From: an uncultured Gammaproteobacteria bacterium
Lineage (GTDB): Bacteria > Patescibacteriota > Microgenomatia > Daviesbacterales > UBA10151
Direction of reading: 5' to 3'
Assembly (NCBI GenBank): GCA_964422835.1
Contig: CAYRCR010000001.1
Coordinates: forward strand, 212,517 to 276,516
Length of the DNA stretch: 64,000 nucleotides
Under the pieces are notes generated by a model. It was not told where the DNA came from, did not search any database, and was given only the letters and a program-made list of their open reading frames with translations. The position numbers and the translations under genes were made by a program. Every line of letters begins with the position of its first letter. Position 1 is the first letter of the stretch. This document shows, piece after piece, positions 7,098-52,186 of this stretch.

Positions 7098-7954
7098 ATT
7101 TTTCCTTCAGAACCAAATACCTCTATCTTCTGTTCTACCACTTTTTGGATACTTTCCACAACAGGCTTTTCAATTTTATACATGGCTGCCTCGTCCGGAC
7201 TCCCTGCCAAAACTTTTGTCAGCTCTTCTTTAAAGGCCAAACGAAGTTCAGTGTTGATATTTACTTTGACAATTCCGTTTTGAATAGCTTCTTTTACTTG
7301 GTCATCGGGCAGGCCTGATGCCCCATGCAAACTTAAAAGACAACCAGAAGCCTCATTGATCCGTCTTAATCTTTCTATGTCAATATTCTCGTCCCCGGCA
7401 CTATAAACCCCATGCAAATTTCCCACAAAAACAGCCAAGATGTCAGCCCCACTATCTCTCATAAACAGTGCCGCTTTTTCAGGATCAGTCATAGGTACTT
7501 TACCCAAATCATCTACCACGGAACCAGCGTGCATTTCCGATGATCCTCCGATATGGTCCATTTCCACCTCAACAGTTAAACCTCTTTGGTGAGCCGCTTC
7601 TACCACTTTTCTGGCAATTTCCAAATTTTGTTCCAGCGGGAGTTTTGAGCCGTCAAAATGAATCATGTCATACCCTGCTTCAATGCCTTTCAGACAATCT
7701 TCCAAAGTTTCAGTATGATCCAGATTTACCAAAACAGGAACGCTAAATTCTGCAGAAAAATTACGGGCCAAATCCACAATGTTTTCTGAACCCAGCCAGG
7801 AAGTTTCACCGGGGGATGATTCAATAATTATGGGAGATTTTTTATTGGCAGCAGCAGAAACTATGGCCTTAAAAGTTTCCAGATTCCCCACATTAAACGC
7901 CCCAATGGCAAACTTTTCATCTTTGGCCTTCTGAAGCCACTCTCTTGCCGTCAT
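7094..7954 (-). CDS. fba: class II fructose/tagatose-bisphosphate aldolase
   Basis: FAIGAFNVGNLE, NLDHTE and MIHFDGS motifs of class II aldolases. Confidence 0.85.
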   Translation of the reverse strand: MTAREWLQKAKDEKFAIGAFNVGNLETFKAIVSAAANKKSPIIIESSPGETSWLGSENIVDLARNFSAEFSVPVLVNLDHTETLEDCLKGIEAGYDMIHFDGSKLPLEQNLEIARKVVEAAHQRGLTVEVEMDHIGGSSEMHAGSVVDDLGKVPMTDPEKAALFMRDSGADILAVFVGNLHGVYSAGDENIDIERLRRINEASGCLLSLHGASGLPDDQVKEAIQNGIVKVNINTELRLAFKEELTKVLAGSPDEAAMYKIEKPVVESIQKVVEQKIEVFGSEGKI

Positions 7955-7978
7955 AAATTTATGATAACATACTGGTTG

Positions 7979-9091
7979 TTATTTGCCTTGAATAGCTTTT
8001 TGCAAAGATTCACAAATGTATGTCACTTTATCTTTTGATAAATTGCCATAAAAAGGCAAGGCCAGAGTTCTTCGGCCCACTTCTTCAGTGACAGGAAAAT
8101 CACCCATCTTATAACCAAATCGTTCGACATAAACAGGCTGGAGATGAATGGGGATAAAATATGGGCGTGATGGAATGCCCATTTTTTGCAAGTTATTCAT
8201 GACTTTATCCCGATTACCATTCATAAGTTGAATCACATACACAAACCAGCTCATTTTAGTCACCATTGGATCAATATAGGGAATTTTGATTCCTTCAATT
8301 CGGTTCAATTGCTCATTGTACCAAGAAGCTACTTTCTCGCGTTTTTCCAGCAACTCATCAATCCTGGAAAGCTGTGCCACCCCCAAGGCCGCGCTCATTT
8401 CATCAAGGCGGTAATTGTAGCCCAAACGGATATGATCAAGCCATCCGCCTCCCTCACCCCTGCCCTGATTTCTTAGGCTCTTAAATAATTCCCGCCACTC
8501 CGTGTTACTTGTCACAATAATTCCACCTTCACCTGTAGTCATCTGTTTATTCGGGTAAAATGCAAACACTGCCGCATCGCCAAAACTACCTGCTTTTTTG
8601 CCCTTAAACTCTGCTCCAATTGCCTCACAGGCATCCTCAATTACTAAAAGTTTGTGTTTTTGGGCAACCACAAGAAGCTCATCCATTCGGCAAGGCTGGC
8701 CAAAAGCATGGACAGGCAGGATCGCTTTGGTTTGAGGGGTAATTTTTTCTTCAATCCCGCTCACATCAATGTTTAAAGTCCCCTGTTCAATATCAACAAA
8801 AACTGGCTTTGCCCTCTCATAGAGAATACAATTGGCTGAGGCAATAAAAGAGAAGGGAGTAGTTATTACTTCATCTCCCTCCCCAATTCCTGCCGCAATC
8901 ATGCACAGGTGCAATCCGGCAGTACCGCTGCTTACCCCTGCGGCATAGTTTGTGCCAATAAATCTAGCCATACTCTCTTCAAATTTTTCAAGCATTGGGC
9001 CCATACTCAAATCAGGGGTATCAAGTACCTGACCAATCAGATCTTTTTCTTTTTGAGTAATATCCGGACCAGAGAGTTTAATCTCCTCCAT
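7979..9091 (-). CDS. DegT/DnrJ/EryC1/StrS-family PLP-dependent sugar aminotransferase
   Basis: 370 aa with the family-typical N-terminal region and an internal lysine region. Confidence 0.8.
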   Translation of the reverse strand: MEEIKLSGPDITQKEKDLIGQVLDTPDLSMGPMLEKFEESMARFIGTNYAAGVSSGTAGLHLCMIAAGIGEGDEVITTPFSFIASANCILYERAKPVFVDIEQGTLNIDVSGIEEKITPQTKAILPVHAFGQPCRMDELLVVAQKHKLLVIEDACEAIGAEFKGKKAGSFGDAAVFAFYPNKQMTTGEGGIIVTSNTEWRELFKSLRNQGRGEGGGWLDHIRLGYNYRLDEMSAALGVAQLSRIDELLEKREKVASWYNEQLNRIEGIKIPYIDPMVTKMSWFVYVIQLMNGNRDKVMNNLQKMGIPSRPYFIPIHLQPVYVERFGYKMGDFPVTEEVGRRTLALPFYGNLSKDKVTYICESLQKAIQGK

Positions 9092-10331
9092 TTTTACCTC
9101 CTGCTATGGCACGGTTCCGGAAAGCCAGCCGATCTTCATATTTTTTTGTCAAACGATCATGTTCGATTTGAAGTTGCTCATTTGTTAAATAACATGTCCG
9201 GGTCATTTTATTACCATATTCATCAACAGCCGACCAATCAATATCCCTATGTTTTTTTTCATCATAAAAACATGTTCCCGGATATGGTGCCAGAATAGTA
9301 AACCCCACTATGTCGGGATCAATTTCATCAATTAACTGCTCAGTTAATTTTATATCATCAATATCCTCATTGGGCATTCCCAATAAGATATAGGCCCGGC
9401 GAAACAACCCAATATCTTTTGCCAATTCAAATGTAATTCTTATCTGATCAGGAGTAATTCCTTTTTTCATATCTGCCAGTATTTTTGGAGAGCCGCTTTC
9501 CACCCCTGCCCAAACCTCGCGGCAGCCGGCTTTATGCATGGCGCGAAGCATTTCCTCATCTGCTGTATCCACCCTGATATTGCATCCCCACTCGGTTTTA
9601 ATATCCCTTTTGAGTTTTTCTTCGCAAAACTGCAGGACCAACTTTTTCCTCAAAGTAAAAGTATCATCGCTAAATTTCATAAAATCAATCTGCCAATCAT
9701 TTACCACCTGTTCAAACTCATCAACAATATTTTTTGCACTGCGGAATCTGACATGCCTTGTCCAAATTACATTACTGGCGCAAAATACACACCTAAAAGG
9801 ACAGCCGCGGCTGCTAAAAATTGCCGCAATTCTTTTTTGATTATCTCTTTCTGCCTCCGCAATATTGCGTTCCTGCCTCACAATTCTCCTATCAGGAAAA
9901 GAAAGACTGTCTAAATCCTCGATATATGGCTGTTGTACTTTTAGTTCATGATTTCCCCGGACAATATCCAAAAATGCGTGTTCCCCTTCACCTATCACCA
10001 CTGCATCCACACACTTATTTTCCAGTGTTTCATCAGGTAAGGCCGAAGGGTGTACACCTCCAAATACAATATGATTATTAGGTCCTTTAATCTTTTCAGC
10101 TAAAAATAAACCATGCCTCATCTGGGGAGAAGTGCACGAAAATCCTACAATATCTGCCCCCTTACAACCCTCGATGATTTCCTTATCACTGTCAAAAAAA
10201 CCGCTGTAGAAAGAAATATTCTCATATCCTGCTACCCTTAAATTAGCCGCAAGATAGCCCATATTTAAAGCTTCCCAGGTGTGAAAGGATCTGGGTTGAA
10301 CCAGTGCAATCTCAGGTTTTCGTTCCGCCAT
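9078..10331 (-). CDS. B12-binding-domain radical SAM protein
   Basis: CPFRCVFCAS radical-SAM cluster motif after an N-terminal cobalamin-binding-like domain. Confidence 0.7.
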   Translation of the reverse strand: MAERKPEIALVQPRSFHTWEALNMGYLAANLRVAGYENISFYSGFFDSDKEIIEGCKGADIVGFSCTSPQMRHGLFLAEKIKGPNNHIVFGGVHPSALPDETLENKCVDAVVIGEGEHAFLDIVRGNHELKVQQPYIEDLDSLSFPDRRIVRQERNIAEAERDNQKRIAAIFSSRGCPFRCVFCASNVIWTRHVRFRSAKNIVDEFEQVVNDWQIDFMKFSDDTFTLRKKLVLQFCEEKLKRDIKTEWGCNIRVDTADEEMLRAMHKAGCREVWAGVESGSPKILADMKKGITPDQIRITFELAKDIGLFRRAYILLGMPNEDIDDIKLTEQLIDEIDPDIVGFTILAPYPGTCFYDEKKHRDIDWSAVDEYGNKMTRTCYLTNEQLQIEHDRLTKKYEDRLAFRNRAIAGGKNGGD

Positions 10332-11298
10332 TATTTATAAATTCTTCGGCAGTAATTTTAGAATTCTCCTTTAGAATCTTTTGTATTTTATCATAAGTTA
10401 AAAGGCCTGCTTGAGCACCTATCTTTTCTACTACCGAAGCCCCGTTGGCTGCCCCCCAGCGCATGGCTTCAGCAAGATCTTTGCCATGGAAAAAGGCTGC
10501 CAGAACTCCTGTGGCATATGCGTCCCCTGCCCCGGTCATATCCACCACTTTTGCCGGAAAAGCCTCCAATTTATAATATTTTTCCCCACTAAATCCATAA
10601 GAACCATTTTTCCCGTCAGTAATAATTACCATCTTCGACCCCAAGTCCAACAAACCGCATAACATTTTTTTCATATTTATCCCGCCTACAACCTGTTCCG
10701 CCTCTTCTTTGTTTAAAATCAAAAGTTTAGTCAGGGAGAGAAGCCTGGCAAATTTTTTAATGCCGAAGTTTAGCTCATAGGTTCCGGGATTATAAATTAA
10801 AGAAGCTCCTGTTCTTTCCAGATAATTTTCAACCTGCCCGTTTAAATTGCACTCTATAGCAGATTTTCCCATAGATGAAACATAAATCCACTTGGCGCGG
10901 TCAAGATCCGGCAACTGGTATTTAAAATCCTGATGGTAAGTTAAAATTGTCCGTTCCCCTTTAAAGGAAATAAGGGCTGAAACATTGGAATCCTGCCCCT
11001 CACAAACTTTTACATAACGGGTATCCACCCCCTCCTCTTTTAATTTAGACAGAGTGAATTTTCCCATCTCATCAGTACCGATATTCAGATAAACTGCCGA
11101 GCGCATGCCAAGCCTTGCTGCTCCCACAGCATTATTGGGGTTATTGCCCCCCAAAACCTGCATGTATTTATCAACAGGTAATTTATCCCCAAAACGGAGA
11201 CATAACTCCTTTTGCCCTTTTTCTATTTCAATCTCCGCATCATGGATCTGAAAAAATAAATCTACCGCCGCATCACCAATGGAAATTAAATCAAACAT
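10312..11298 (-). CDS. PfkB-family carbohydrate kinase
   Basis: DTTGAGDAYATG (PfkB GAGD motif) and an N-terminal GG region. Confidence 0.75.
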   Translation of the reverse strand: MFDLISIGDAAVDLFFQIHDAEIEIEKGQKELCLRFGDKLPVDKYMQVLGGNNPNNAVGAARLGMRSAVYLNIGTDEMGKFTLSKLKEEGVDTRYVKVCEGQDSNVSALISFKGERTILTYHQDFKYQLPDLDRAKWIYVSSMGKSAIECNLNGQVENYLERTGASLIYNPGTYELNFGIKKFARLLSLTKLLILNKEEAEQVVGGINMKKMLCGLLDLGSKMVIITDGKNGSYGFSGEKYYKLEAFPAKVVDMTGAGDAYATGVLAAFFHGKDLAEAMRWGAANGASVVEKIGAQAGLLTYDKIQKILKENSKITAEEFINNGGTKT

Positions 11299-24548: not shown

Positions 24549-24623
24549 TTGGCTGCGGGACTAGGAGTCGAACCTAGATAGACAAGTTCAGAGCCTGTCG
24601 TCCTACCATTAGACGATCCCGCA
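24549..24623 (-). tRNA. tRNA-Gln (anticodon CTG)
   Basis: Manual cloverleaf fold: acceptor TGCGGGA/TCCCGCA (U1:A72, as in bacterial tRNA-Gln), anticodon loop CTCTGAA, T-arm CTAGG-TTCGACT-CCTAG, 3' GCCA. Confidence 0.85.
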
Positions 24624-26653: not shown

Positions 26654-26914
26654 TTTTTAGATTATATCATAAGTCAGTTGTGGGGTAAAGATGGGGAAAT
26701 TAGAAACCTATTTTTTATGATTATTTAATAATCGGGGTTTCCCCTCTTTTCCTCAACACTTTACCCCCAAACCTGATTTAAAAGTATCTTAACTTCCGAG
26801 ATTAAGAAAACAATAAATTTTTTGTAAGGAATGCGCAAGGAAAGAATATCAGAATAGTGTAAGAGAATGTTATAGGTCTTGAAATGTAAGAAAAATACTT
26901 ATATAATTTGGGGC

Positions 26915-27586
26915 ATGACAAAATCAATACTAGTAGTGGAAGATGACCAGGGCCTGCAAAAGTACCTTAAAGAACTGCTTTCGGAAAACGGCTATAATGT
27001 ACGCGCAGCTTCGGATGGGATTGAAGCGCTCGGGGCCATTAAAAAACTTCCTCCTGATTTAGTCATCCTGGATTTAGGCCTTCCCAATATGAGCGGTGAG
27101 TCTGTCTGCACGGAAGTGCACAAAAAATACCCCGACGTGTCAGTTTTAATTTTAACGGCCAAGGATAGTGTGGCCGATATTGTGGCAGGATTAAATTTAG
27201 GGGCAGATGATTATATGACCAAACCATTTGTGGCAGATGAGCTTCTGGCAAGGATAAAGGCCAGGCTCCGGGAAAAAGGCAATAATGAGATAGAGTTGCA
27301 GGTTGGGGATTTGGTGCTAGATACTAAAAATTTTGAGGTCAAGCGGGGTAAGAAACAAATCCAGCTTACTCCCCAGGAATTTAAGCTCCTGCAATACTTA
27401 ATGACCAATAAAGGCAGGATTTTAACCCGGGAAATGATATTAAACAGGGTCTGGCTTTATTCACAGGATATAGAAACCCGGGTGATTGATGTTTATGTGG
27501 GGTATTTGCGGAAAAAAATTGACACAGGTTTTGATAAAAAGCTCATCCACTCTGTCCGTGGTTTTGGGTACATGGTTAAGGAGTGA
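26915..27586 (+). CDS. OmpR-family two-component response regulator (start at MTKSIL)
   Basis: Receiver domain (VVEDD...D...K) plus a winged-helix output domain. Confidence 0.85.
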   Translation: MTKSILVVEDDQGLQKYLKELLSENGYNVRAASDGIEALGAIKKLPPDLVILDLGLPNMSGESVCTEVHKKYPDVSVLILTAKDSVADIVAGLNLGADDYMTKPFVADELLARIKARLREKGNNEIELQVGDLVLDTKNFEVKRGKKQIQLTPQEFKLLQYLMTNKGRILTREMILNRVWLYSQDIETRVIDVYVGYLRKKIDTGFDKKLIHSVRGFGYMVKE

Positions 27587-27590
27587 GTAT

Positions 27591-28307
27591 ATGTACCTAG
27601 ACTGCGAACCACCACAAAGAAGATTGCAGATCATCGTAGTACGCCATGGGGAACCAGAGAAATATGCTGCCACGGACGCCAGATTATCCGAAAATGGTGT
27701 GAGTCAAATTAGAGATTTTAAAGACGAGGTAGTTGCAAGACTCCAGGATGAAACCTCTAGGTGCCTAGTACAAATATTTCACAGCACCCGCCAACGCACA
27801 CATCAATCAGCAACTATTATTTATGATGGGATAGCGGCAGAAATCAAATCTGGCAGGTTAACAAATACGTTACTGGCAGATACCAGAAGCTGCGAAGCCC
27901 TTCAAACCGCCGATCCCTTAAATAGATTACAAGAGGAAGGAGTTACTCCAGATAGATTAATGCATGTTTGGCTGACCACACCAGAAGAAGAGTTAGCGTC
28001 ACGGGGAATATTAACCCCCAGTCAAATCGCACACAACTTCCGAAGACTCGTAGGCGAATTGGTCTGTTGTCCGATCTGGCCGGATGGCATTTCAAAAAAG
28101 ATTGACATTCTACAAACCCATGAGACCTCAACTGCCGCCATACTGGGCTCATGGCTTGGAAAACCAATATCCGAACAACGCATCGAATACGCGGGACATA
28201 TCAACATTGTAGCTCCTTATCCCGGTGATGATGCTCGTGACAATCCCTGGTTTGGGATTCAAGGTAGCGGCCACAAGCCAGATAGAAAATTATTTATGCC
28301 GCTTTAG
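27591..28307 (+). CDS. histidine phosphatase superfamily (phosphoglycerate-mutase-like) protein
   Basis: RHGE catalytic motif (IVVRHGEPE) near the N-terminus. SD aaggag 5-13 nt upstream of ATG at 27591. The upstream part of the track ORF (27486-27590) is not coding. Confidence 0.6.
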   Translation: MYLDCEPPQRRLQIIVVRHGEPEKYAATDARLSENGVSQIRDFKDEVVARLQDETSRCLVQIFHSTRQRTHQSATIIYDGIAAEIKSGRLTNTLLADTRSCEALQTADPLNRLQEEGVTPDRLMHVWLTTPEEELASRGILTPSQIAHNFRRLVGELVCCPIWPDGISKKIDILQTHETSTAAILGSWLGKPISEQRIEYAGHINIVAPYPGDDARDNPWFGIQGSGHKPDRKLFMPL

Positions 28308-29349
28308 TTAGTTTCCGTGGATGCTCCCTAAAAAACTCGTCAACAATATCTTCCACCGGCAAACCAAAATCTTTGGGACGGTCGCCTAAACGGATTACAT
28401 CTCGAAGATATCCCGTCCTAACATCATTCATCGCCACAAGACAACTTGCCCCATAGGGCTCAAAATATCGCTTACAAAAGTCTATGCAATAATACCGAAG
28501 GTTTTCACTGAACAAATGCGAGCGCATCGGAAATCTGCGTTGGCAGGAATAGACCCATTCATTAACGATGCTCATCATCCTTTCTTTAACCATATTTGCC
28601 GCTCCCACAGTCGCCATCCCCTCCTGGAGCCGCGTTAGATCTTGCTCATCCGTTTCTCCCCCCAGATCGATCCGTAAAGATTTTAGCTGTCTATTAAATC
28701 TTAATAAATCGTTATCTGCGATAGCTTTTGCAACAGCACCACGAAATTTTTCTGCCCTCTTTTCTACTGCCGGGCTAGCTATAACTACCACAACAAAGGA
28801 TTTGTCTTCTCTTCGACACGAATATTTAACACTATTAAGTTGCGCTCTTCCCCCAAGGTCTCTATAAGGATAAGTGATTACCGGCGCCGCTCTTACATGG
28901 AATACTTGTTGCGTAGGTGTTTGCTGTGGGCGGATGTATCCTCTGTCAGCATAAACCATTACTTCCGAAGTCCGAGCTAAAGCCCAATCGCTAGATTGGT
29001 GACCAGTTGCGGCGTTACCCCATTTAACACCCTCGTGCTCCTCCACCGATCTTAAATATTCGTCAAACTCATCATGAATAATCACTAGTTCGCGGCCAGT
29101 TTCTTTTAGGTGGTTCCCAATTTTCTTCACGAGAGGATGCGGCGAATCACCTGACATAAACTCCACAAGCTGCCTCGCCACAATACTTTTTCCCGCATAA
29201 GGCACTCCGTTAACATTCAATTCAACAACCCCCACTCCTTTATTACCAAGGGCAGAGTTACCTACCATTAAACTACCACTAACCTCCATCAAGAACCCAT
29301 CAATTTCAGGCAAACTTAGCAATACCCCATACCTTTCTTTCGTGTTCAT
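28294..29349 (-). CDS. P-loop NTPase/kinase-like protein of unknown function, translationally coupled to the upstream histidine kinase
   Basis: Walker A GVPYAGKS and a Walker-B-like ELVIIHDEFDE. ATGA overlap with the HK gene. Confidence 0.45.
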   Translation of the reverse strand: MNTKERYGVLLSLPEIDGFLMEVSGSLMVGNSALGNKGVGVVELNVNGVPYAGKSIVARQLVEFMSGDSPHPLVKKIGNHLKETGRELVIIHDEFDEYLRSVEEHEGVKWGNAATGHQSSDWALARTSEVMVYADRGYIRPQQTPTQQVFHVRAAPVITYPYRDLGGRAQLNSVKYSCRREDKSFVVVVIASPAVEKRAEKFRGAVAKAIADNDLLRFNRQLKSLRIDLGGETDEQDLTRLQEGMATVGAANMVKERMMSIVNEWVYSCQRRFPMRSHLFSENLRYYCIDFCKRYFEPYGASCLVAMNDVRTGYLRDVIRLGDRPKDFGLPVEDIVDEFFREHPRKLTKAA

Positions 29350-30506
29350 TTTTTAAATCGTGGCAAGGCAATTTCTACGGTCGTTCCGCGGCCAACCCTT
29401 GAATTAATACTGATAGTCCCCCTATGCGTGTCAATGATATTTTTTACTAAAAAAAGCCCCAAACCCATTCCCCGTTCCGATTTTTCATCTCCCTTAAAAA
29501 ACCCCTCAAACACCTTTCCTAAATCTTTTTTTTCAATACCTTTTCCATAATCCTTGACAGCCAATATGATATCTGACTCCGTTTCGCTCAATTCTAATTT
29601 GATTTCACCCTGGTTGGTAGAAAATTTGCTAGCATTGTCAAGTAAATTTGAGATCGCCTGCAATAATTTATCAAAATCGCCAATAATTAACCCGGCAGAC
29701 GGAGTTGTTTTATTCTCAAAAACCAATTTTCTATCAGGATAATTAAAACGGAATCTTAAAATAGCTTTACCAATAATCTCTTTTATGTCATGCTCCCGTA
29801 AGTCAAAATGAAACTTACCAACATTAATTCTACTAATATCCAGAAGTTCATTAACAAGCCCTGTTAATCTTGATATTTCCCCTGATAATTCCTGGATCCA
29901 ACGTGCTGGTTTGGGAGGAAGTTGCTGCAACTGGGTTTCCAAAAGCTGGGCATACCCGCTAATTGTCGTTAAGGGAGTGCGCAATTCATGAGCAGCCAGA
30001 GAGATGAATAAATCACGGTGTTTCAAAGCCTGTTGTGCCTGCTGATAAAGTTGAGTTTTCCTGATTGCCAACGATGCCATTGATCCGAAAAGTTTGAGAG
30101 TGTTTTCATCATTTACAGAGAAATCTTCATCTTTAGATGAACGGACGGTTAGGGCTCCGATTGGTTTTCTGCGATAGGAAAGAGGTATAAAAATAAGTGA
30201 CTTCACTCCCGCTTTTACGATTTCTGGATGTATTCGCCTTAATTCTTTTGCATAAACTATCAAAACTTTCTGCTCGCTTATAGATTTATAAGTAAAACCT
30301 CGTTTGCGGACTTTAGTATTTGAAAAATCGGGGTTTACGCTATAAACTGTTGTAATCCCCTTTCCGTCAACCAGAGAAACAGAGCCCCCATTTCCTTTTA
30401 CCAATCTGATAGCTTCATGTACAATAATGGCATACGTTTCCTCCGGCGTTAGCGGCACTAAAAATTTTAGGCCGCTTTTGTATATTTTTTCAAGGGTATT
30501 ATCCAT
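29346..30506 (-). CDS. cytoplasmic GAF-domain sensor histidine kinase
   Basis: H-box HELRTPLTTISGYAQLLE and a C-terminal HATPase region. No TM segments. Confidence 0.8.
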   Translation of the reverse strand: MDNTLEKIYKSGLKFLVPLTPEETYAIIVHEAIRLVKGNGGSVSLVDGKGITTVYSVNPDFSNTKVRKRGFTYKSISEQKVLIVYAKELRRIHPEIVKAGVKSLIFIPLSYRRKPIGALTVRSSKDEDFSVNDENTLKLFGSMASLAIRKTQLYQQAQQALKHRDLFISLAAHELRTPLTTISGYAQLLETQLQQLPPKPARWIQELSGEISRLTGLVNELLDISRINVGKFHFDLREHDIKEIIGKAILRFRFNYPDRKLVFENKTTPSAGLIIGDFDKLLQAISNLLDNASKFSTNQGEIKLELSETESDIILAVKDYGKGIEKKDLGKVFEGFFKGDEKSERGMGLGLFLVKNIIDTHRGTISINSRVGRGTTVEIALPRFKK

Positions 30507-30611
30507 AATCCTTTAAAACGTGGTTATTTTACCATGTTTGATCTTGACTTTACAATACTGATGAAAAGTTTTAGGAAATATAGGCACGACAAGATAGAGT
30601 TCTTACAATTT

Positions 30612-39711: not shown

Positions 39712-41057
39712 TCTGCGCTAAATTTCAAAAGAGAGGCTTCCAGATCTATACTGTCGGAGGGTCTGTCCGCGATCTTTTAATGGGGAGGGGGGTTCATGAT
39801 TGGGACTTTACTACTGATGCTACGCCGGAGGAAATACTCAAGCTTTTCCCGGAGGGATTTTATGATAATAAATTCGGAACGGTCGGTGTAAAGGCGGGTG
39901 ACGTGCAAATTTACGAGATCACCACCATGCGCAAAGAGGGAAAATATGAAGATTTCCGTCACCCTGAAAAAGTTTTATGGACTAATAAAATTGAAGAAGA
40001 TTTGGCCCGCAGAGATTTCACTATCAATGCGATAGCCCTTCGACTAGTTTACACTGAGTGTAATCGAAGTGCTCAGGGTGAACCTCCAAATTTTGAAATT
40101 GTTGACCCATATGATGGGCAGGAAGACATTAAAAATAAATTAATCAGGGCTGTTGGCGACCCGGACAGAAGATTTAAGGAAGATGCCTTAAGGCTTATAC
40201 GGGCTATTAGATTTGTAGCACAATTGGGGTTTGAAATTGAGGAAAAAACATATCTGGCTATCAAAAAAAATACTCATCTTATCTCTGAAGTGGCCAACGA
40301 AAGAATCCGCGATGAGCTATTTAAACTTCTGGGTTCAGACAATCCCCTTTTGGGAATTGAAAAAATGCGGGATACTGGTATCCTGCAAATAATTTTGCCG
40401 GAAGTAGAGAAAAGTTTTGGGGTATCGCAAGTTGGTCCCAAACATGCCCGGGTTTATGATATCGGCAGCCACTTATTTTTAACTTTGAAAGAAACCCCCT
40501 CCAAAGACCCCCTAGTCAGGCTAGCAGCGCTTTTACACGATATCGGTAAAGCAGATACTTTAAAAGTCGATGAAACTGGTAATGCCACCTTTTACCAGCA
40601 TGATGTGGTGGGATCAAGGCTGGCACTTCAAATTGCCAAAAGGTTTAATTTATCAAGAAAACAAACTGATAAACTTTTCAGATTAGTCCGCTGGCATTTA
40701 TTTACAGTTGACGAGAGACAAACTGATAGTGCCATCCGCCGCTTTATCAAAAATGTCGGACGGGAAAATATAGAGGATATGATGGCAATAAGGATCGGGG
40801 ATCGGATCGGGGGAGGAACCCAGCGGGCAGTTTCCTGGAGAATGGAAAGATTTGGAGGAAGAATTAAACAAGTTCTGAAAAAACCATTTTCAATATCTGA
40901 TTTAAAAATTAATGGCCAAGATGTGATGAAAATTTTAAATATCCCACCCAGTCCCAAAGTGGGTCATATTTTACAAAAACTTTTTGAGGAAGTTCTGGAA
41001 GACGCCTCTAAAAACAACAGGGAATATCTACTAAACGAAATTAAGCAATTGAACTGA
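39654..41057 (+). CDS. cca: CCA-adding tRNA nucleotidyltransferase with HD domain
   Basis: GGSVRDLLMG and DWDFTT polymerase-beta motifs. HD motif LLHDIGK. Confidence 0.8.
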   Translation: MDYKIPESVQKILNEQVRAFCAKFQKRGFQIYTVGGSVRDLLMGRGVHDWDFTTDATPEEILKLFPEGFYDNKFGTVGVKAGDVQIYEITTMRKEGKYEDFRHPEKVLWTNKIEEDLARRDFTINAIALRLVYTECNRSAQGEPPNFEIVDPYDGQEDIKNKLIRAVGDPDRRFKEDALRLIRAIRFVAQLGFEIEEKTYLAIKKNTHLISEVANERIRDELFKLLGSDNPLLGIEKMRDTGILQIILPEVEKSFGVSQVGPKHARVYDIGSHLFLTLKETPSKDPLVRLAALLHDIGKADTLKVDETGNATFYQHDVVGSRLALQIAKRFNLSRKQTDKLFRLVRWHLFTVDERQTDSAIRRFIKNVGRENIEDMMAIRIGDRIGGGTQRAVSWRMERFGGRIKQVLKKPFSISDLKINGQDVMKILNIPPSPKVGHILQKLFEEVLEDASKNNREYLLNEIKQLN

Positions 41058-41077
41058 ATTATATTCATTTTTATTCT

Positions 41078-41103
41078 TTTGTTCTATTGATTTAAATCAT
41101 TAG
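41078..41103. promoter_or_regulatory. near-perfect palindrome gttctattgatttaaatcattagaac upstream of the TrpR-like gene
   Basis: 24 of 26 positions palindromic. Shares the core TGATTTAAATCA with the palindrome at 41579-41614. Confidence 0.4.
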
Positions 41104-41121
41104 AACAAATATAGTAATTTT

Positions 41122-41574
41122 ATGGCACAGGTCTCTAAGTACCCTATCTCAAAAGATATAGCCGACCGGATATTTGATATTTTTATTAAAACTTTATTAA
41201 AAATCCATAATCCACAAGATGCCCAAAATTTAACCAACGACTTATTTTCCCCAACAGAAAAAATTATGCTGGCAAAACGTTTAGCTATTGCTTTTCTATT
41301 GATGAAAAATTATCAATACCGGGAAATCAGTAAACTTTTGAGAGTTAGCGTAGCTACAGTGGCTTCAGTTAACATATCACATAAATATGGCAGTGGTGGC
41401 TATAAAACTATACTTGAACGCATAGCCAAAGAGGAAAAACTAGAAGAATTTTTCTTGGGAATAGCAGAACAATTGCTAAAATTACCGGCCAGTGTCTCGA
41501 AAGGAGGAGGAAACTGGAGATACCTCTTAGAAGAAGTTAGAAAATCAAAAAGAAAAAAATTGAATGAACTTTGA
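41122..41574 (+). CDS. TrpR-like YerC/YecD-family DNA-binding protein
   Basis: 150 aa. PF01371-like HTH region (MLAKRLAIAFLLMKNYQYREISKLLRVSVATV). Confidence 0.55.
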   Translation: MAQVSKYPISKDIADRIFDIFIKTLLKIHNPQDAQNLTNDLFSPTEKIMLAKRLAIAFLLMKNYQYREISKLLRVSVATVASVNISHKYGSGGYKTILERIAKEEKLEEFFLGIAEQLLKLPASVSKGGGNWRYLLEEVRKSKRKKLNEL

Positions 41575-41578
41575 TGCA

Positions 41579-41614
41579 ATACCGTTTCAATGATTTAAAT
41601 CATTGAAACGGTAT
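41579..41614. terminator. perfect 36-nt palindrome (ataccgtttcaatgattt|aaatcattgaaacggtat) between convergent genes
   Basis: 18-nt perfect arms. Overlaps the last 7 codons of the minus-strand gene. Bidirectional terminator or regulatory site. Confidence 0.5.
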
Positions 41615-42078
41615 CTTATTCTTCTTAAATCTCCATCTAGTATAATAGGTCTCATTGCTAAAATTTCTGTCTTATAAAAATCTATTTCTGGAACTGGATT
41701 TAATAGAAAAATTTTTTTATCATTTACATAAGCAAAACCTATTTCCAAAAAAGAATTTCCTCCAATATAATTGGGGATACCTTTTTTATCATAATTTAGG
41801 ACTACTATTCCGTCTGACTTCATTATTTTACGGTAATGATCTTTTATCAAATCGTGCTTCCTTTTAAATTCTGCACTTTCGCGCTCTCCATTACCTTGTA
41901 GTTCTTCCCTTATCAGTGCCTCTCTGTCAAACCGTTCGATTGAATATGGTACTTCAACTTTAATTCCAGCATTTTTCAGTGCTTCTCTTGCCTGAACCAT
42001 TTGTTCAGCAAAAGACATTGATCCGCAGATAGTTATTTTAATTTCTCTATTCATTAATGTCCCAATTTTTCTTCCCAT
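41587..42078 (-). CDS. nucleoside 2-deoxyribosyltransferase-like protein
   Basis: KITICGSMSF...GGNSFLEIGFAY pattern resembles the Nuc_deoxyrib_tr-like fold. Tentative. Confidence 0.4.
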   Translation of the reverse strand: MGRKIGTLMNREIKITICGSMSFAEQMVQAREALKNAGIKVEVPYSIERFDREALIREELQGNGERESAEFKRKHDLIKDHYRKIMKSDGIVVLNYDKKGIPNYIGGNSFLEIGFAYVNDKKIFLLNPVPEIDFYKTEILAMRPIILDGDLRRIRYRFNDLNH

Positions 42079-42941
42079 AAAACAAGTAAAGCCGTGGCAT
42101 TAAAGATTGAGGAATATGTTCCGGAGACAATTCCCACAAGGAGTGCTACTACAAACCACCTGATAGTTTCACCCCCAAACAGAAGCAGTGCCAGCAGGAC
42201 AAAAACTACCGTCAGGGAAGTATTCAAAGACCTGGCTAAAGTTTGGGTAATGGAAATATTAGCAACCTCCTCAAATCTTCTTGATAAATGTTTGGGTAGA
42301 TTTTCCCTAATTCTGTCAAAAACTACAATGGTATCATGAACAGAAAATCCAATTACAGTAAGAGTGGCTGTGACAAATAAAACGTCGACTTCCACTTTCA
42401 AGAAATGCCCTAAAAGGGAGAATACCCCTACTAATACTAACACATCATGAAGCAACGCTATGACTGCCGTGATGCCAAATCTAAGAGATGAAGCAGGTTT
42501 GGGCACTTTTCTGAAAGACAGGGCAAGATAAATAATAATGGCAAAAGAGGCCACGATAACTGCCAGGAATGCATTGCGGGTAGTTTCTGCCCCGATTATG
42601 GGACCGATATTTTCTACTCTCACTTCTTCTGCTTTGCCAAAATCTTTTTCCAACTCCTTTTTCACCTCAAGTATCTTTTGGCCATCAACTGGTTTAGTTT
42701 TTATGATATAAGTATTATTTCCGGAGTCAGCAATTGAGGATACTTCTATATTTTGTTTAACAATCTTTTCGTGCAAATTATCCTTATTTATGCTTCTTTC
42801 AAATTTATATTCCAAAAGCGCCCCGCCGGTAAAATCTACCCCCAGATTTAATCCGTATAAAAACAGCGAGATTGTTCCGGGCAAAATAATAACCAGAGAC
42901 AGAACAAAAAACCACCATTTTTTACCCATTAAATTAAGCAT
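42054..42941 (-). CDS. secF: protein translocase subunit SecF
   Basis: N-terminal TM, GVDFTGG motif, six TM helices. Confidence 0.85.
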   Translation of the reverse strand: MLNLMGKKWWFFVLSLVIILPGTISLFLYGLNLGVDFTGGALLEYKFERSINKDNLHEKIVKQNIEVSSIADSGNNTYIIKTKPVDGQKILEVKKELEKDFGKAEEVRVENIGPIIGAETTRNAFLAVIVASFAIIIYLALSFRKVPKPASSLRFGITAVIALLHDVLVLVGVFSLLGHFLKVEVDVLFVTATLTVIGFSVHDTIVVFDRIRENLPKHLSRRFEEVANISITQTLARSLNTSLTVVFVLLALLLFGGETIRWFVVALLVGIVSGTYSSIFNATALLVLWEEKLGH

Positions 42942-48371: not shown

Positions 48372-48659
48372 TTAAAACCGATTCGTTTCTTTTTTTAGAA
48401 GTTTAAAGTCCTCTGTAAAACTATCCGGAGCAAGTTTTTCCAATTCATTTTCCAGGTTGCTGGTTTTATCAAGAGTGATTGGAGTGGGGGTGGGTCCGGC
48501 AGTTGGCGGAGGGGTGGGGGTGGGTTGGAAGGCAGCGGAAGATCCGGGTATCTGCAAGTTTGCAGATATTAAACTCTGATTTACTTTGCGCCCAAAAATT
48601 CCAAACAATAACCCGACAATTACTATACTGCATATAATAAGTATTACTATCTTTTTCAT
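48372..48659 (-). CDS. hypothetical membrane-anchored protein with Pro/Thr-rich linker
   Basis: 95 aa. Confidence 0.35.
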   Translation of the reverse strand: MKKIVILIICSIVIVGLLFGIFGRKVNQSLISANLQIPGSSAAFQPTPTPPPTAGPTPTPITLDKTSNLENELEKLAPDSFTEDFKLLKKETNRF

Positions 48660-49177
48660 TACTTAATTACTCCTTTTAAAATTTGCCCTGAATAGATAAC
48701 TTTAGAGCGGGCAGATAAAAGTTCTCCCTCAAACAATGAAATTAAATTCAATGCATCGTTTTTAATATTTCCCTCCCCATTTAAAATAAAAATATAAATT
48801 TTGGCTGCCTGATAGGCTATGGCCTCGTGGGCATAAGTTATCTGATATCTGGCTTTTTCAATTCCCACCTTGTTATTTCCATTGGAACGAAGTTCATATT
48901 CATCCAGAATCCTAGCTTGGTTAATCATAATTTGGTCCAATTCATCGGCTCGTCTCTTATTAATTTCGGCAATTTTATCGGAAAGAATTTTTAATTTTTG
49001 TTTATGGTCAAAGGAATAATTTTTGACTGTTTTTTCATAGGCTTCCCTTTTGGAATTGACAATATCCTCCGGTGTCACCCTGGCAAAAACCTGCCCTGGC
49101 CATATCATTGCCAATAAAATTAGTAGCATCAATATCACACATCGGATGTGTGATATTGCTAATCTTTTCTTAAACAT
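48659..49177 (-). CDS. hypothetical membrane-anchored protein
   Basis: 172 aa. Its N-terminal codons contain one copy of the palindromic repeat. Confidence 0.35.
   Translation of the reverse strand: MFKKRLAISHIRCVILMLLILLAMIWPGQVFARVTPEDIVNSKREAYEKTVKNYSFDHKQKLKILSDKIAEINKRRADELDQIMINQARILDEYELRSNGNNKVGIEKARYQITYAHEAIAYQAAKIYIFILNGEGNIKNDALNLISLFEGELLSARSKVIYSGQILKGVIK
49134..49157. repeat. palindromic repeat ATCACACATCGGATGTGTGATATT (copy 1)
   Basis: Near-identical copy at 50162-50185. The two copies bracket the frameshifted gene. Confidence 0.6.
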
Positions 49178-50312: not shown

Positions 50313-51329
50313 TTATTTTTCAACAAGAAGCCCTCTTTTGCGGAGTTCCCCGATTTTAGCTAACTCCAATGCTTCTACTTGTGGTGGGAGTTGTTCCGCA
50401 ATTCTTAGGGCTTCCAATTTTCCAGATAAATAATCCATTATTTCTTGTTGCGAAGTTGATTGATCAAACCAAGTAAACTCTTTACTATCAGATCGATAAC
50501 CCCAATCTGTCAAACATTGATCGTAATATGGAACAAGAATTGATGGGACAGTTACCCAAATTACTAAATTATCAGGTCTATACCAAATCTGCTTTGGAAT
50601 AGTATCATTGCTAATGTGTTGAGTTACCCTAAGACCCTGGTAAAAGTCAAGAAAAAATTCCCTTAGTTCTGTATTCTCAGAAGCAAAACCCTTATAAGGA
50701 TTGGTTTCATTCCCTGGTAAATTTTGGGGTTCTGGAAATTTCATATTTCCAAAATCAACTCTTATTTGCTCACGAACTTCCGAACTTAAAGCTAACCACT
50801 TCCCTGTGCGGTAATACTCTGTCCTAGGACCACAATCGTAATCACCACCCATAGGAGTACCATGCGAAATGTAGCCTGGGTGATCTATTCCCTTTATTTC
50901 TTCTTTTGTAAAGGTATAGTTGCACCAAAGAACAGCCTTGCTTCCTTCATGACGAATTTCACCTCTACCCCATATGTCACGTACCATCCCGAGTATCTCA
51001 ACAACATTTATTCGATCTAAAAGTTGATCTCGAGCTTCAAGTCCTTTTCTGTATGTTTCTGTATGTTTTTCTAAGAGAAACTCATCATCCTTGGGAACAA
51101 GACAATCATCCGCCCAGTCCAAAGAGTAAACCATCACCCCGCGTCCATGAAAGGACCTCACTTCTCGCTCTTTACCATTTCTAAATAGAAATCCTGGAAT
51201 AACTTTGATAGTACTGATTTTTTCTCCATCTAATCGTGCTCTGAATGCATTAAGTTGAGCTTCTGTTGACATTGAAAGGTTATTTCCCACTCCTGTAGAT
51301 TGTGGTTCAGGTTCAGTTGCCATATGCAC
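50313..51329 (-). CDS. hypothetical 338-aa protein, no recognised family
   Basis: Bracketed by the 17-nt direct repeats. No TM segments. Confidence 0.4.
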   Translation of the reverse strand: MHMATEPEPQSTGVGNNLSMSTEAQLNAFRARLDGEKISTIKVIPGFLFRNGKEREVRSFHGRGVMVYSLDWADDCLVPKDDEFLLEKHTETYRKGLEARDQLLDRINVVEILGMVRDIWGRGEIRHEGSKAVLWCNYTFTKEEIKGIDHPGYISHGTPMGGDYDCGPRTEYYRTGKWLALSSEVREQIRVDFGNMKFPEPQNLPGNETNPYKGFASENTELREFFLDFYQGLRVTQHISNDTIPKQIWYRPDNLVIWVTVPSILVPYYDQCLTDWGYRSDSKEFTWFDQSTSQQEIMDYLSGKLEALRIAEQLPPQVEALELAKIGELRKRGLLVEK

Positions 51330-51374
51330 GAATTTTACTCCAAGCTATAAGCTAAATCAAATTAATTTACCATG

Positions 51375-51391
51375 CATCTCGAAGGCCATGG
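51375..51391. repeat. 17-nt direct repeat catctcgaaggccatgg (copy 2)
   Basis: See copy 1. Confidence 0.5.
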
Positions 51392-51426
51392 TTGTAAACT
51401 TTGTCGAAACAGTGCAAAGCTAACTT

Positions 51427-51500
51427 TTAATTCTCTTCACGAGCCCTATATGTTAAAGCTTCTGCTATATGTTCCGATAAAATGTTTTCCTGATCTGCCA
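51427..51500 (-). repeat. orphan duplicate of the comM/yifB 3' end (encodes ...ADQENILSEHIAEALTYRAREEN*)
   Basis: 59 bp identical to 52245-52303, plus 5 further codons with synonymous changes and their own stop. A direct-repeat partner of the intact gene end, like an att-site pair. Confidence 0.7.
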
Positions 51501-51507
51501 AATTACA

Positions 51508-51846
51508 TCAAGTTCCCACACTGAGTGTGGGAACACAAGGAACAATCTTAATTTCTAATCTAGCTTTTAGAGCTTTGGTAACTTTTTCCAAAGTTTTCAG
51601 TGTATATCCCGTATAATCCGCAGACTCAATTCTGGCAATATTAGACTGTTTTGTCCCAACTAATTTTGCCAATTCTGTTTGAGTTAATCCCATTTTTTCC
51701 CTTAAATCATAGAGTTGGAAAGCAATATCCCAGGCTTGATCTGCTTTATCCATTTCCACCTTAAAAGAAGGATCCTGTTTTAAGAGTTTCTCTGTTAATC
51801 TATCTATATCATCTTTTATTCTTTTCATTTTAATTTTCTCCTTCAT
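51508..51846 (-). CDS. higA: HigA-like antitoxin (XRE-family HTH)
   Basis: HTH LTQTELAKLVGTKQSNIARIE. Overlaps the upstream toxin gene by 17 nt. Confidence 0.7.
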   Translation of the reverse strand: MKEKIKMKRIKDDIDRLTEKLLKQDPSFKVEMDKADQAWDIAFQLYDLREKMGLTQTELAKLVGTKQSNIARIESADYTGYTLKTLEKVTKALKARLEIKIVPCVPTLSVGT

Positions 51847-52186
51847 TTTTTAATTCTTTTAATCTTTTTCTTGCTATTTCCAGCTCATTTACCGGAGTTT
51901 TCTGTTTCTTTTTAATAAATATATGCAATAAAATAATTATCTGCCCTTTATTAAAAGTATAAATAATTCTCAAAATATCTGTTCCTGATTTAGCTCTTAA
52001 TTCCCATAAGTTTGGTTCCAGATACTTCGATAATGGCTCTTTATGATAAATTTTATATCTTAATTTCTCAATTCCCCTACGAGCTTGAGCTACCAAAACC
52101 TTATTACTTTTTTCCAGCTCAAGAAAGAATTTCTCTATCAGATTACTTCCCGATTTATCTTTATAAAAAATTATCTTAAATTCCAT
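51830..52186 (-). CDS. higB: HigB-like toxin (RelE/ParE superfamily, Gp49-like)
   Basis: LWELR...ILRIIYTFNKGQIIILLHIFIKKKQKTPVNELEIARKR pattern matches Gp49/HigB addiction-module killer proteins. Toxin-then-antitoxin order. Confidence 0.7.
   Translation of the reverse strand: MEFKIIFYKDKSGSNLIEKFFLELEKSNKVLVAQARRGIEKLRYKIYHKEPLSKYLEPNLWELRAKSGTDILRIIYTFNKGQIIILLHIFIKKKQKTPVNELEIARKRLKELKNEGEN

Follow-up and report, generated by a model that had tools for sequence, protein, structure and literature searches.

Are two genes packed against the two halves of an ordinary two-component system part of that system, or are they only its neighbors? A locus in a 64-kb stretch of DNA (contig CAYRCR010000001.1; the whole stretch analyzed is called the window here) raises this question. 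An OmpR/PhoB-family response regulator (RR) gene is followed in it by a gene for a histidine-phosphatase-type protein with an RHG motif, and a GAF-domain histidine kinase (HK) gene is followed by an orphan open reading frame (ORF) of 351 codons. The answer that we favor, with slightly less than even confidence, is that the locus encodes a cytoplasmic GAF-HK/OmpR system in which the RHG phosphatase acts on the kinase and the orphan is a lineage-specific partner of HK. Judged from their sequences, the two accessory genes are lineage-specific and very fast-evolving, and they appear to have a functional link to the HK/RR pair. New here is that one particular HK/RR pair shares its operons with an RHG phosphatase gene and with a hyper-divergent ORF coupled to HK.

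An ordinary two-component core carries an accessory gene on each half

According to the ORF list, the four genes form two convergent pairs, with RR and the phosphatase gene on the + strand and HK and the 351-aa ORF on the − strand. An earlier note on this DNA had described these four genes in this convergent order, and both the ORFs and the Pfam matches bear it out. The two-component core by itself is ordinary. The RR gene (26915..27586, +; 223 aa) encodes Response_reg (1e-29) and Trans_reg_C (8e-27) domains in Pfam, and the soluble sensor HK (29346..30506, −; 386 aa) has a GAF-HisKA-HATPase_c architecture (HisKA, 2e-16; HATPase_c, 4e-26). The H-box of HK, HELRTP, begins at residue 173 and keeps the H-E-x-x-T motif. 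The pair has all the hallmarks of a classical two-component system: HisKA with an H-box, HATPase_c, and a receiver with a winged-helix output. In GenBank, HK is OGE70567.1, from Candidatus Daviesbacteria bacterium RIFOXYD1_FULL_41_10, a member of the Candidate Phyla Radiation (CPR) from Rifle aquifer groundwater. Since even the best NCBIfam equivalog scores fell below their cut-offs, for RR (MtrA, 210.9 versus 300; PhoB, 202.6 versus 296) as well as for HK (WalK, 161 versus 725; PhoR, 155 versus 334), the core is not assignable to PhoBR, WalRK, or MtrAB.

Both accessory genes are closely joined to the core. The RR-phosphatase junction reads AAGGAG-TGA-GTAT-ATG: the AAGGAG ribosome-binding site of the phosphatase gene (27578..27583, +) is contained in the RR coding sequence at its 3′ end, the RR stop codon (27584-27586) follows, and a 4-nt spacer leads to the ATG at 27591. 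The short spacer and strong Shine-Dalgarno (SD) site described in the earlier note are both present, as is the ATGA at 29349-29346, in which the HK stop codon overlaps the start of the 351-aa ORF. At the center of the locus, the 3′ ends of the 351-aa ORF and the phosphatase gene overlap convergently by 14 nt (28294-28307). None of the four proteins contains a hydrophobic segment, so the whole set is predicted to be cytoplasmic.

The RR-linked gene encodes a divergent histidine-phosphatase-type protein

Profile matches show the predicted product of the RR-linked gene (27591..28307, +; 238 aa) to be a divergent member of branch 1 of the histidine-phosphatase superfamily, yet not SixA. It matches His_Phos_1 (PF00300) in Pfam with 27.4 bits against a gathering cut-off of 21.7 (E value of 3.2e-6), in agreement with the RHGE histidine phosphatase proposed in the earlier note. 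The phosphatase motifs are IIVVRHGE, with RHG at residues 18 to 20 (His19), and ENG at residues 34 to 36. A candidate second histidine, H177, lies in ILQTHETS / DILQTHETSTAAILG (THE, residues 176 to 178), where a strand-H-[GE]-x-x-helix arrangement was recognized by eye in a region outside the profile alignment. A word-indexed search of 5.8e9 proteins for relatives of this protein found no match other than the query.

The same four kinds of genes recur at a second locus

A genome scan for orthologous loci returned one true ortholog, on contig CAZAEE010000003.1 (L011) of a distant relative, together with generic GAF kinases of Chloroflexota and cyanobacteria, near which no relatives of the accessory genes were found. 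The L011 HK is 44% identical to that of the window over its full length, and the RR is 71% identical. In L011, a gene for a 300-aa RHG-containing protein (7114-8016) overlaps the start of the HK gene (8001-9182) by 16 nt; an overlapping 379-aa orphan ORF (9154-10293), the positional counterpart of the 351-aa ORF, follows HK; and a convergent RR gene (10238-10909, −) overlaps the end of this ORF. The flanking genes, SecA and GlmS, are unlike those of the window, where the locus is flanked by MurA, GltX, and an alginate lyase. Thus, the same four kinds of genes are present at both loci in a different order and among different neighbors, and each time the RHG gene shares an operon with one half of the two-component pair, with RR in the window and with HK in L011. 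The two RHG proteins are weakly similar to each other (BLASTP E value of 6e-4; Smith-Waterman z score of 5.8, reached by 1 of 500 shuffles; hhalign P value of 0.0026 over 107 columns). In the region of the second histidine, the L011 protein reads IGVGHSAVLAS.

A metagenome scan added only two loci, L056 and L057, both incomplete, and a scan of viral contigs for orthologous loci returned nothing. In L056, HK is 48% identical to that of the window, and its stop codon again lies in an ATGA, shared with the start of a further ORF that has no stop codon before the contig ends. That downstream ORF (8153-8291) starts with MSEFGTSWRDRIPRG, is unlike the other two downstream ORFs, and is cut by the contig end after 46 codons.

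The earlier note had called for a comparison of gene neighborhoods, and the outcome is divided: L011 keeps the kinds of genes, while their order and flanks differ and the two orphans are not demonstrably homologous. The proposal that the accessory genes are tied to the two-component pair draws support from this recurrence at a sample size of two. Conservation of gene kinds at that sample size is suggestive of a functional module, not conclusive.

The orphan was also found on 22 contigs that represent one nearly clonal population and therefore add nothing on conservation. Of 12 contigs compared over the region, 11 show at most one difference from the window, and the remaining one, L060, shows 10. 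Variation in the orphan among the 12 amounts to one synonymous and one nonsynonymous single-nucleotide polymorphism (SNP), which leaves a selection test without statistical power. In L060, nine SNPs, seven of them synonymous, fall within 76 nt of the RR gene (equivalent to 26989-27064 of the window), and the rest of the 4.1-kb region matches the window except for one SNP; the cluster resembles a short tract introduced by recombination with a related strain. L011 is titled "uncultured Gammaproteobacteria bacterium" although its RR and HK are 71% and 44% identical to Daviesbacteria proteins, and this taxonomic label may be wrong.

The 351-aa protein carries Walker-like strings and matches no known family

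The HK-coupled ORF (28294..29349, −) encodes a protein that, by all profile and sequence comparisons made, is an orphan belonging to no known family. As the earlier note had pointed out, it contains Walker A- and B-like strings: GVPYAGKS at residues 48 to 55 and IIHDE within LVIIHDE at residues 88 to 94. In composition-matched shuffles, the Walker A pattern arose in 0.95% of sequences, and in 0.04% a Walker B-like string came after it, both figures being post hoc. Elsewhere in the window, the Walker A regular expression matches three proteins, each of them a true P-loop protein. The motif pair is a fair lead toward a putative nucleotide-binding loop.

Homology searches gave the orphan no relatives. 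A word-indexed search of 5.8e9 clusters and a full HMMER search over 1.84e9 representatives each returned only the protein itself. Nothing meaningful came from Pfam (E value of up to 10), NCBIfam (E value of up to 0.1), PADLOC, or PHROGs, and tblastn against plasmids and phages gave no match. In the PDB, phmmer and profile searches with the whole orphan, its N-terminal 189 aa, a two-sequence profile, and the L011 orphan returned only noise; the best P-loop-type match, to the nucleotide-binding domain of CFTR, had a nonsignificant E value of 1.3. For the 379-aa orphan of L011, a large cluster search likewise returned only the query. These results uphold the observation in the earlier note that the 351-aa protein has no recognizable kinase family.

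Its description there as a kinase-like P-loop protein fared less well, resting as it does on two short motifs that neither profiles, PDB matches, nor a fold back up. The profile and structure comparisons that the earlier note had suggested produced no family match, and AlphaFold2 models reached pLDDT values of only 33.2 from the single sequence and 38.5 from a two-sequence alignment and are unusable; in these low-confidence models, a helix directly follows the Walker A-like loop. Foldseek comparison of the model with the PDB gave no match at an E value of <0.3 and TM scores of ≤0.19 among the 50 matches listed. Scattered Foldseek matches to PP2C and proteasome structures (TM score of <0.2) were disregarded. 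The L011 counterpart has GEPAVGKK, which lacks the Ser/Thr, and no hhhhDE string, so that canonical Walker A and B motifs are missing from it. In the best local alignment of the two orphans, the GVPYAGKS of the window protein stands opposite SAKFAGTV, and the glycine-rich loops are not aligned with each other. Of the features that define P-loop proteins, the motif pattern is present and a profile or sequence match to a P-loop family was not found; membership of the 351-aa protein in this class is unproven.

The GC-richer block reflects protein composition

The earlier note had read a sharp rise in base composition over the accessory genes as a sign of acquisition. GC content is indeed elevated, at 45.3% over 27600-29350 against 41.5% for the window, which places the block in the top 0.3% of 1,750-nt windows; the rise is not sharp, with a z score of only 1.7. 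The two accessory ORFs have GC contents of 0.450 and 0.449, about 1.1 standard deviations (SD) above the per-gene mean (0.4155; SD, 0.031; 52 long ORFs), and seven other ORFs, several of them of housekeeping size, equal or exceed these values. GC at third codon positions (GC3) is normal (0.405 and 0.398 versus a mean of 0.384). The excess sits in codon positions 1 and 2, and R/(R+K) is 0.62 to 0.65 against a mean of 0.39, so the elevation reflects amino acid composition (proteins richer in Arg, Gly, and Ala) and not foreign DNA. The codon-position values of the orphan (0.56/0.39/0.40) are typical of window genes, and the order GC1 > GC3 ≈ GC2 is characteristic of real genes of this organism's genome.

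No flanking repeat pairs were found around the block. Its alternative frames contain no recognizable mobility genes or pseudogenes, and shadow ORFs there have no Pfam match. The counterpart genes in L011 are not GC enriched (the L011 locus has 39.8% GC). Because GC3 is normal, flanking repeats are absent, and the L011 counterparts are not enriched, acquisition is unsupported. The marks that define a horizontally acquired island, namely, deviant synonymous-site composition, repeats or mobility genes, and absence from relatives, were not found here.

Known regulators of sensor kinases provide partial precedents

Parts of the literature on Escherichia coli SixA propose that it acts on phospho-histidine in signaling proteins, namely, the ArcB HPt domain, NPr, and Ndk (PMC6282199, PMC7948535, PMC12934123). 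Like the window protein, SixA is a small soluble protein of the His_Phos_1 superfamily with RHG near its N terminus; its model has only 154 positions against the 238 aa of the window protein, which scores below the SixA cut-off. The sixA gene is not known to lie beside those of its targets, whereas the RHG gene of the window is operonic with a response regulator.

A closer functional precedent is the C-terminal RHG domain of mycobacterial MutT1, which dephosphorylates the sensor kinases SenX3, PhoR, MtrB, and MprB in an RHG-dependent manner and thereby damps signaling; these target kinases are classical and paired with OmpR-type regulators (PMC12407098). MutT1 is fused to a Nudix domain, serves many kinases, and is encoded outside their operons, whereas the window protein stands alone beside one HK/RR pair. 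Beyond superfamily membership, the MutT1 domain has no detectable sequence relationship to it. The arrangement had been called undescribed in the earlier note. This holds for an operon-encoded phosphatase of this kind, of which we found no description; RHG phosphatases that act on sensor kinases have been described. Documented cases of an extrinsic phosphatase resetting a sensor kinase are scarce, namely, SixA and, since 2025, the MutT1 C-terminal domain, and for neither does genome context name a specific partner kinase. An RHG phosphatase operonic with a single HK/RR pair, and this in two gene orders, would offer a one-to-one test of whether dedicated two-component phosphatases exist in the histidine-phosphatase superfamily.

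On the kinase side, lineage-restricted products encoded downstream of a kinase gene, LpqB after MtrB and YycH/YycI after WalK, are known to modulate kinase activity. Like the orphan, they are products of a lineage-restricted gene placed right behind the kinase gene and coupled to it. They differ in being extracytoplasmic or membrane proteins that act on membrane kinases, whereas the HK and orphan of the window are soluble, and the orphan has no sequence similarity to them (no Pfam or NCBIfam match). In the Streptomyces conservons, cvnA-D encode an HK-like sensor, a Roadblock protein, a DUF742 protein, and a small P-loop GTPase. Here the likeness lies in a sensor-kinase-like gene in an operon with a P-loop protein, a status that is only putative for the orphan. 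Roadblock and DUF742 genes are not present at the window locus, and the orphan has 351 aa against ~200 aa and gave no match to a GTPase or ATPase family. CPR genomes commonly contain orphan genes, and the locus illustrates how these can be attached to conserved signaling cores.

A proposed dedicated phosphatase and kinase partner, weighed against other explanations

In the system that we favor, the RHG protein would be an extrinsic signaling phosphatase that removes the phosphoryl group from the phospho-histidine of HK. Its gene would be co-transcribed with RR, and co-transcription with the regulator would make the phosphatase a device for negative feedback or reset. The H-E-x-x-T motif goes with a kinase's own phosphatase activity on its RR; since HK keeps this motif, an extra RR phosphatase would be less needed, and this consideration, together with the SixA and MutT1 precedents, points to phosphorylated HK (HK~P) as the substrate. 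On the most economical reading, then, the RHG protein would take phosphoryl groups out of the pathway, with HK~P as their probable source. The orphan would be translated by reinitiation at the HK stop codon and be roughly stoichiometric with the kinase. The ATGA coupling suggests that its amount is proportional to that of the kinase, which would fit a binding partner or an input module. As such a partner, the orphan may be an input or modulator protein, and nucleotide binding via its Walker-like loop is possible.

Several observations weigh against this reading. The His_Phos_1 alignment of the phosphatase spans only positions 1 to 71 of the 194 in the profile, and with 17.2 bits the protein falls short of the 74.5 that the SixA model (TIGR00249) requires. 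The majority of His_Phos_1 proteins act on small molecules as phosphatases or are mutases. In L056 and L057, an RHG gene is missing upstream of HK, and the downstream sides are cut by contig ends. Homology of the two HK-downstream orphans was not found by hhalign, whose P value of 0.097 equals that of negative controls, or by semi-global alignment (z score of 0.2 to 1.8), and only an N-terminal local match between them reaches a P value of ~0.01. L011 is the only complete comparator, so that the sample comprises two loci plus one partial one. Some of these points favor adjacency alone, an explanation that we consider unlikely, if far from negligible: the RHG protein would be an ordinary metabolic or small-molecule phosphatase, the 351-aa ORF an unrelated lineage-specific gene, and their position a product of compact CPR packing. 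Besides the absence of the RHG gene from L056 and L057, it is consistent with the best weak NCBIfam match of the phosphatase, which is to alpha-ribazole phosphatase (19.4 bits, ahead of SixA), with a PDB profile match to a putative phosphoglycerate mutase (E value of 0.044), and with the overlapping genes that, according to the ORF list, are common across the window. Adjacency does not, however, readily account for the recurrence of the association in L011 despite another gene order and other neighbors, or for an RHG gene that is operonic both times, through the 4-nt spacer after RR in the window and the 16-nt HK overlap in L011. Should the association be accidental, what is left is an ordinary two-component locus plus two hypothetical genes.

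We judge it improbable that the two GC-richer ORFs play no part in signaling and represent DNA that is decaying or was acquired recently, or else young genes. Their GC content is the highest among the local genes, and neither has relatives among billions of proteins. Also compatible with such an origin are the accession numbers of the deposited RR and HK, which are consecutive (OGE70566.1 and OGE70567.1), while their locus tags, A2617_03375 and A2617_03390, leave a two-gene gap; in the protein collection, the accessory proteins themselves are without an NCBI accession, and the two genes thus seem to have no deposited NCBI protein record. Set against this are the genome-typical GC3 and codon-position pattern, the lack of flanking repeats, mobile-element genes, and plasmid, phage, or defense-system matches, and the intact RHG catalytic motifs; moreover, chance alone is unlikely to produce uninterrupted ORFs of 238 and 351 aa that have an SD site or ATGA coupling, and the same kinds of genes are present in L011. 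A model along the lines of the earlier note, in which the orphan is a novel P-loop kinase that, with the RHG phosphatase, forms and breaks down a phosphorylated nucleotide or small molecule for the GAF domain to sense, has little probability in our estimation. The rarity of the motif pair in shuffles, the true P-loop proteins behind the other Walker A matches, the helix after the loop in the models, and the GAF domain of HK all fit it. It is countered by the lack of any P-loop family match in Pfam, NCBIfam, or the PDB even at E values of up to 10, by the noncanonical L011 counterpart, by glycine-rich loops that stay unaligned in the sole significant local alignment, and by models that lend no fold support. 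We attach a similarly low likelihood to a full four-component phosphosignaling unit, in which an operon-encoded phosphohistidine phosphatase and a new nucleotide-binding family that escapes sequence searches would together control a soluble GAF kinase; the accessory proteins of such a unit, changing so rapidly that they look orphan-like in each lineage, would act on the kinase or would make and destroy a phosphorylated GAF ligand.

Promoters, candidate regulator sites, and other features of the window

A promoter-like TTGAAA-17-TATAAT sequence precedes RR (26879..26907, +) and matches the consensus at 11 of 12 positions. Its −10 hexamer ends 7 nt before the ATG at 26915, no SD site is present, and the promoter covers the TTG of a longer mechanical RR ORF (26879-27586, +; 235 aa). 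The 223-aa form is the one deposited at NCBI, and it is from M13 that the RR aligns with that of L011; ATG 26915 is the more likely start, as judged by these comparisons, in preference to TTG 26879. Because the −10 hexamer ends so close to the ATG, the RR mRNA probably has no leader or hardly any. In L011, an extended −10 sequence, TGATATAAT, ends 5 nt before the ATG of RR (10909-10940, −). Upstream of HK, a promoter-like TTGTAA-18-TAAAAT sequence with a TG extension (30526..30555, −) was identified by consensus match only.

Three TGTAAGR boxes, at 26823, 26858, and 26885 (26823..26892, +), lie upstream of RR as candidate RR-binding sites, and a TGTAAGAA box is located ~100 nt upstream of the HK start (30600..30607, −), so that such boxes stand before both two-component operons, always in the sense orientation. 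The 8-mer recurs at orthologous HKs, 72 nt upstream in L056 (6919-6926) and 80 nt upstream in L057 (511-518). Of its three copies in the window, two are at these two promoters. The shuffle control for the boxes is weak: an 8-mer common to at least four of six regions arose in 3.3% of sense-only shuffles and in 21% of both-strand shuffles. As candidate binding sites for RR, the boxes are a weak lead.

No terminator-like hairpin was found at the convergent junction, where the fold z score is 0.15, and the two operons share 14 nt at their 3′ ends in the window and 56 nt in L011 (10238-10293). Given this overlap and the lack of such a hairpin, transcripts of the two halves should collide or form antisense overlaps.

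The sole Rfam match in the window is a tRNA gene (24553-24623, −), 2.3 kb from the locus and apart from the GC-richer block. Three other segments, 41001-42100, 48659-49177, and 51001-52000, deviate more in base composition than that block does, their GC content being 32 to 34%, compared with 41.5% over the whole window. For the ORFs at 41122-41574 and 41587-42078, GC contents are 0.34 and 0.315, and GC3 falls as low as 0.20.

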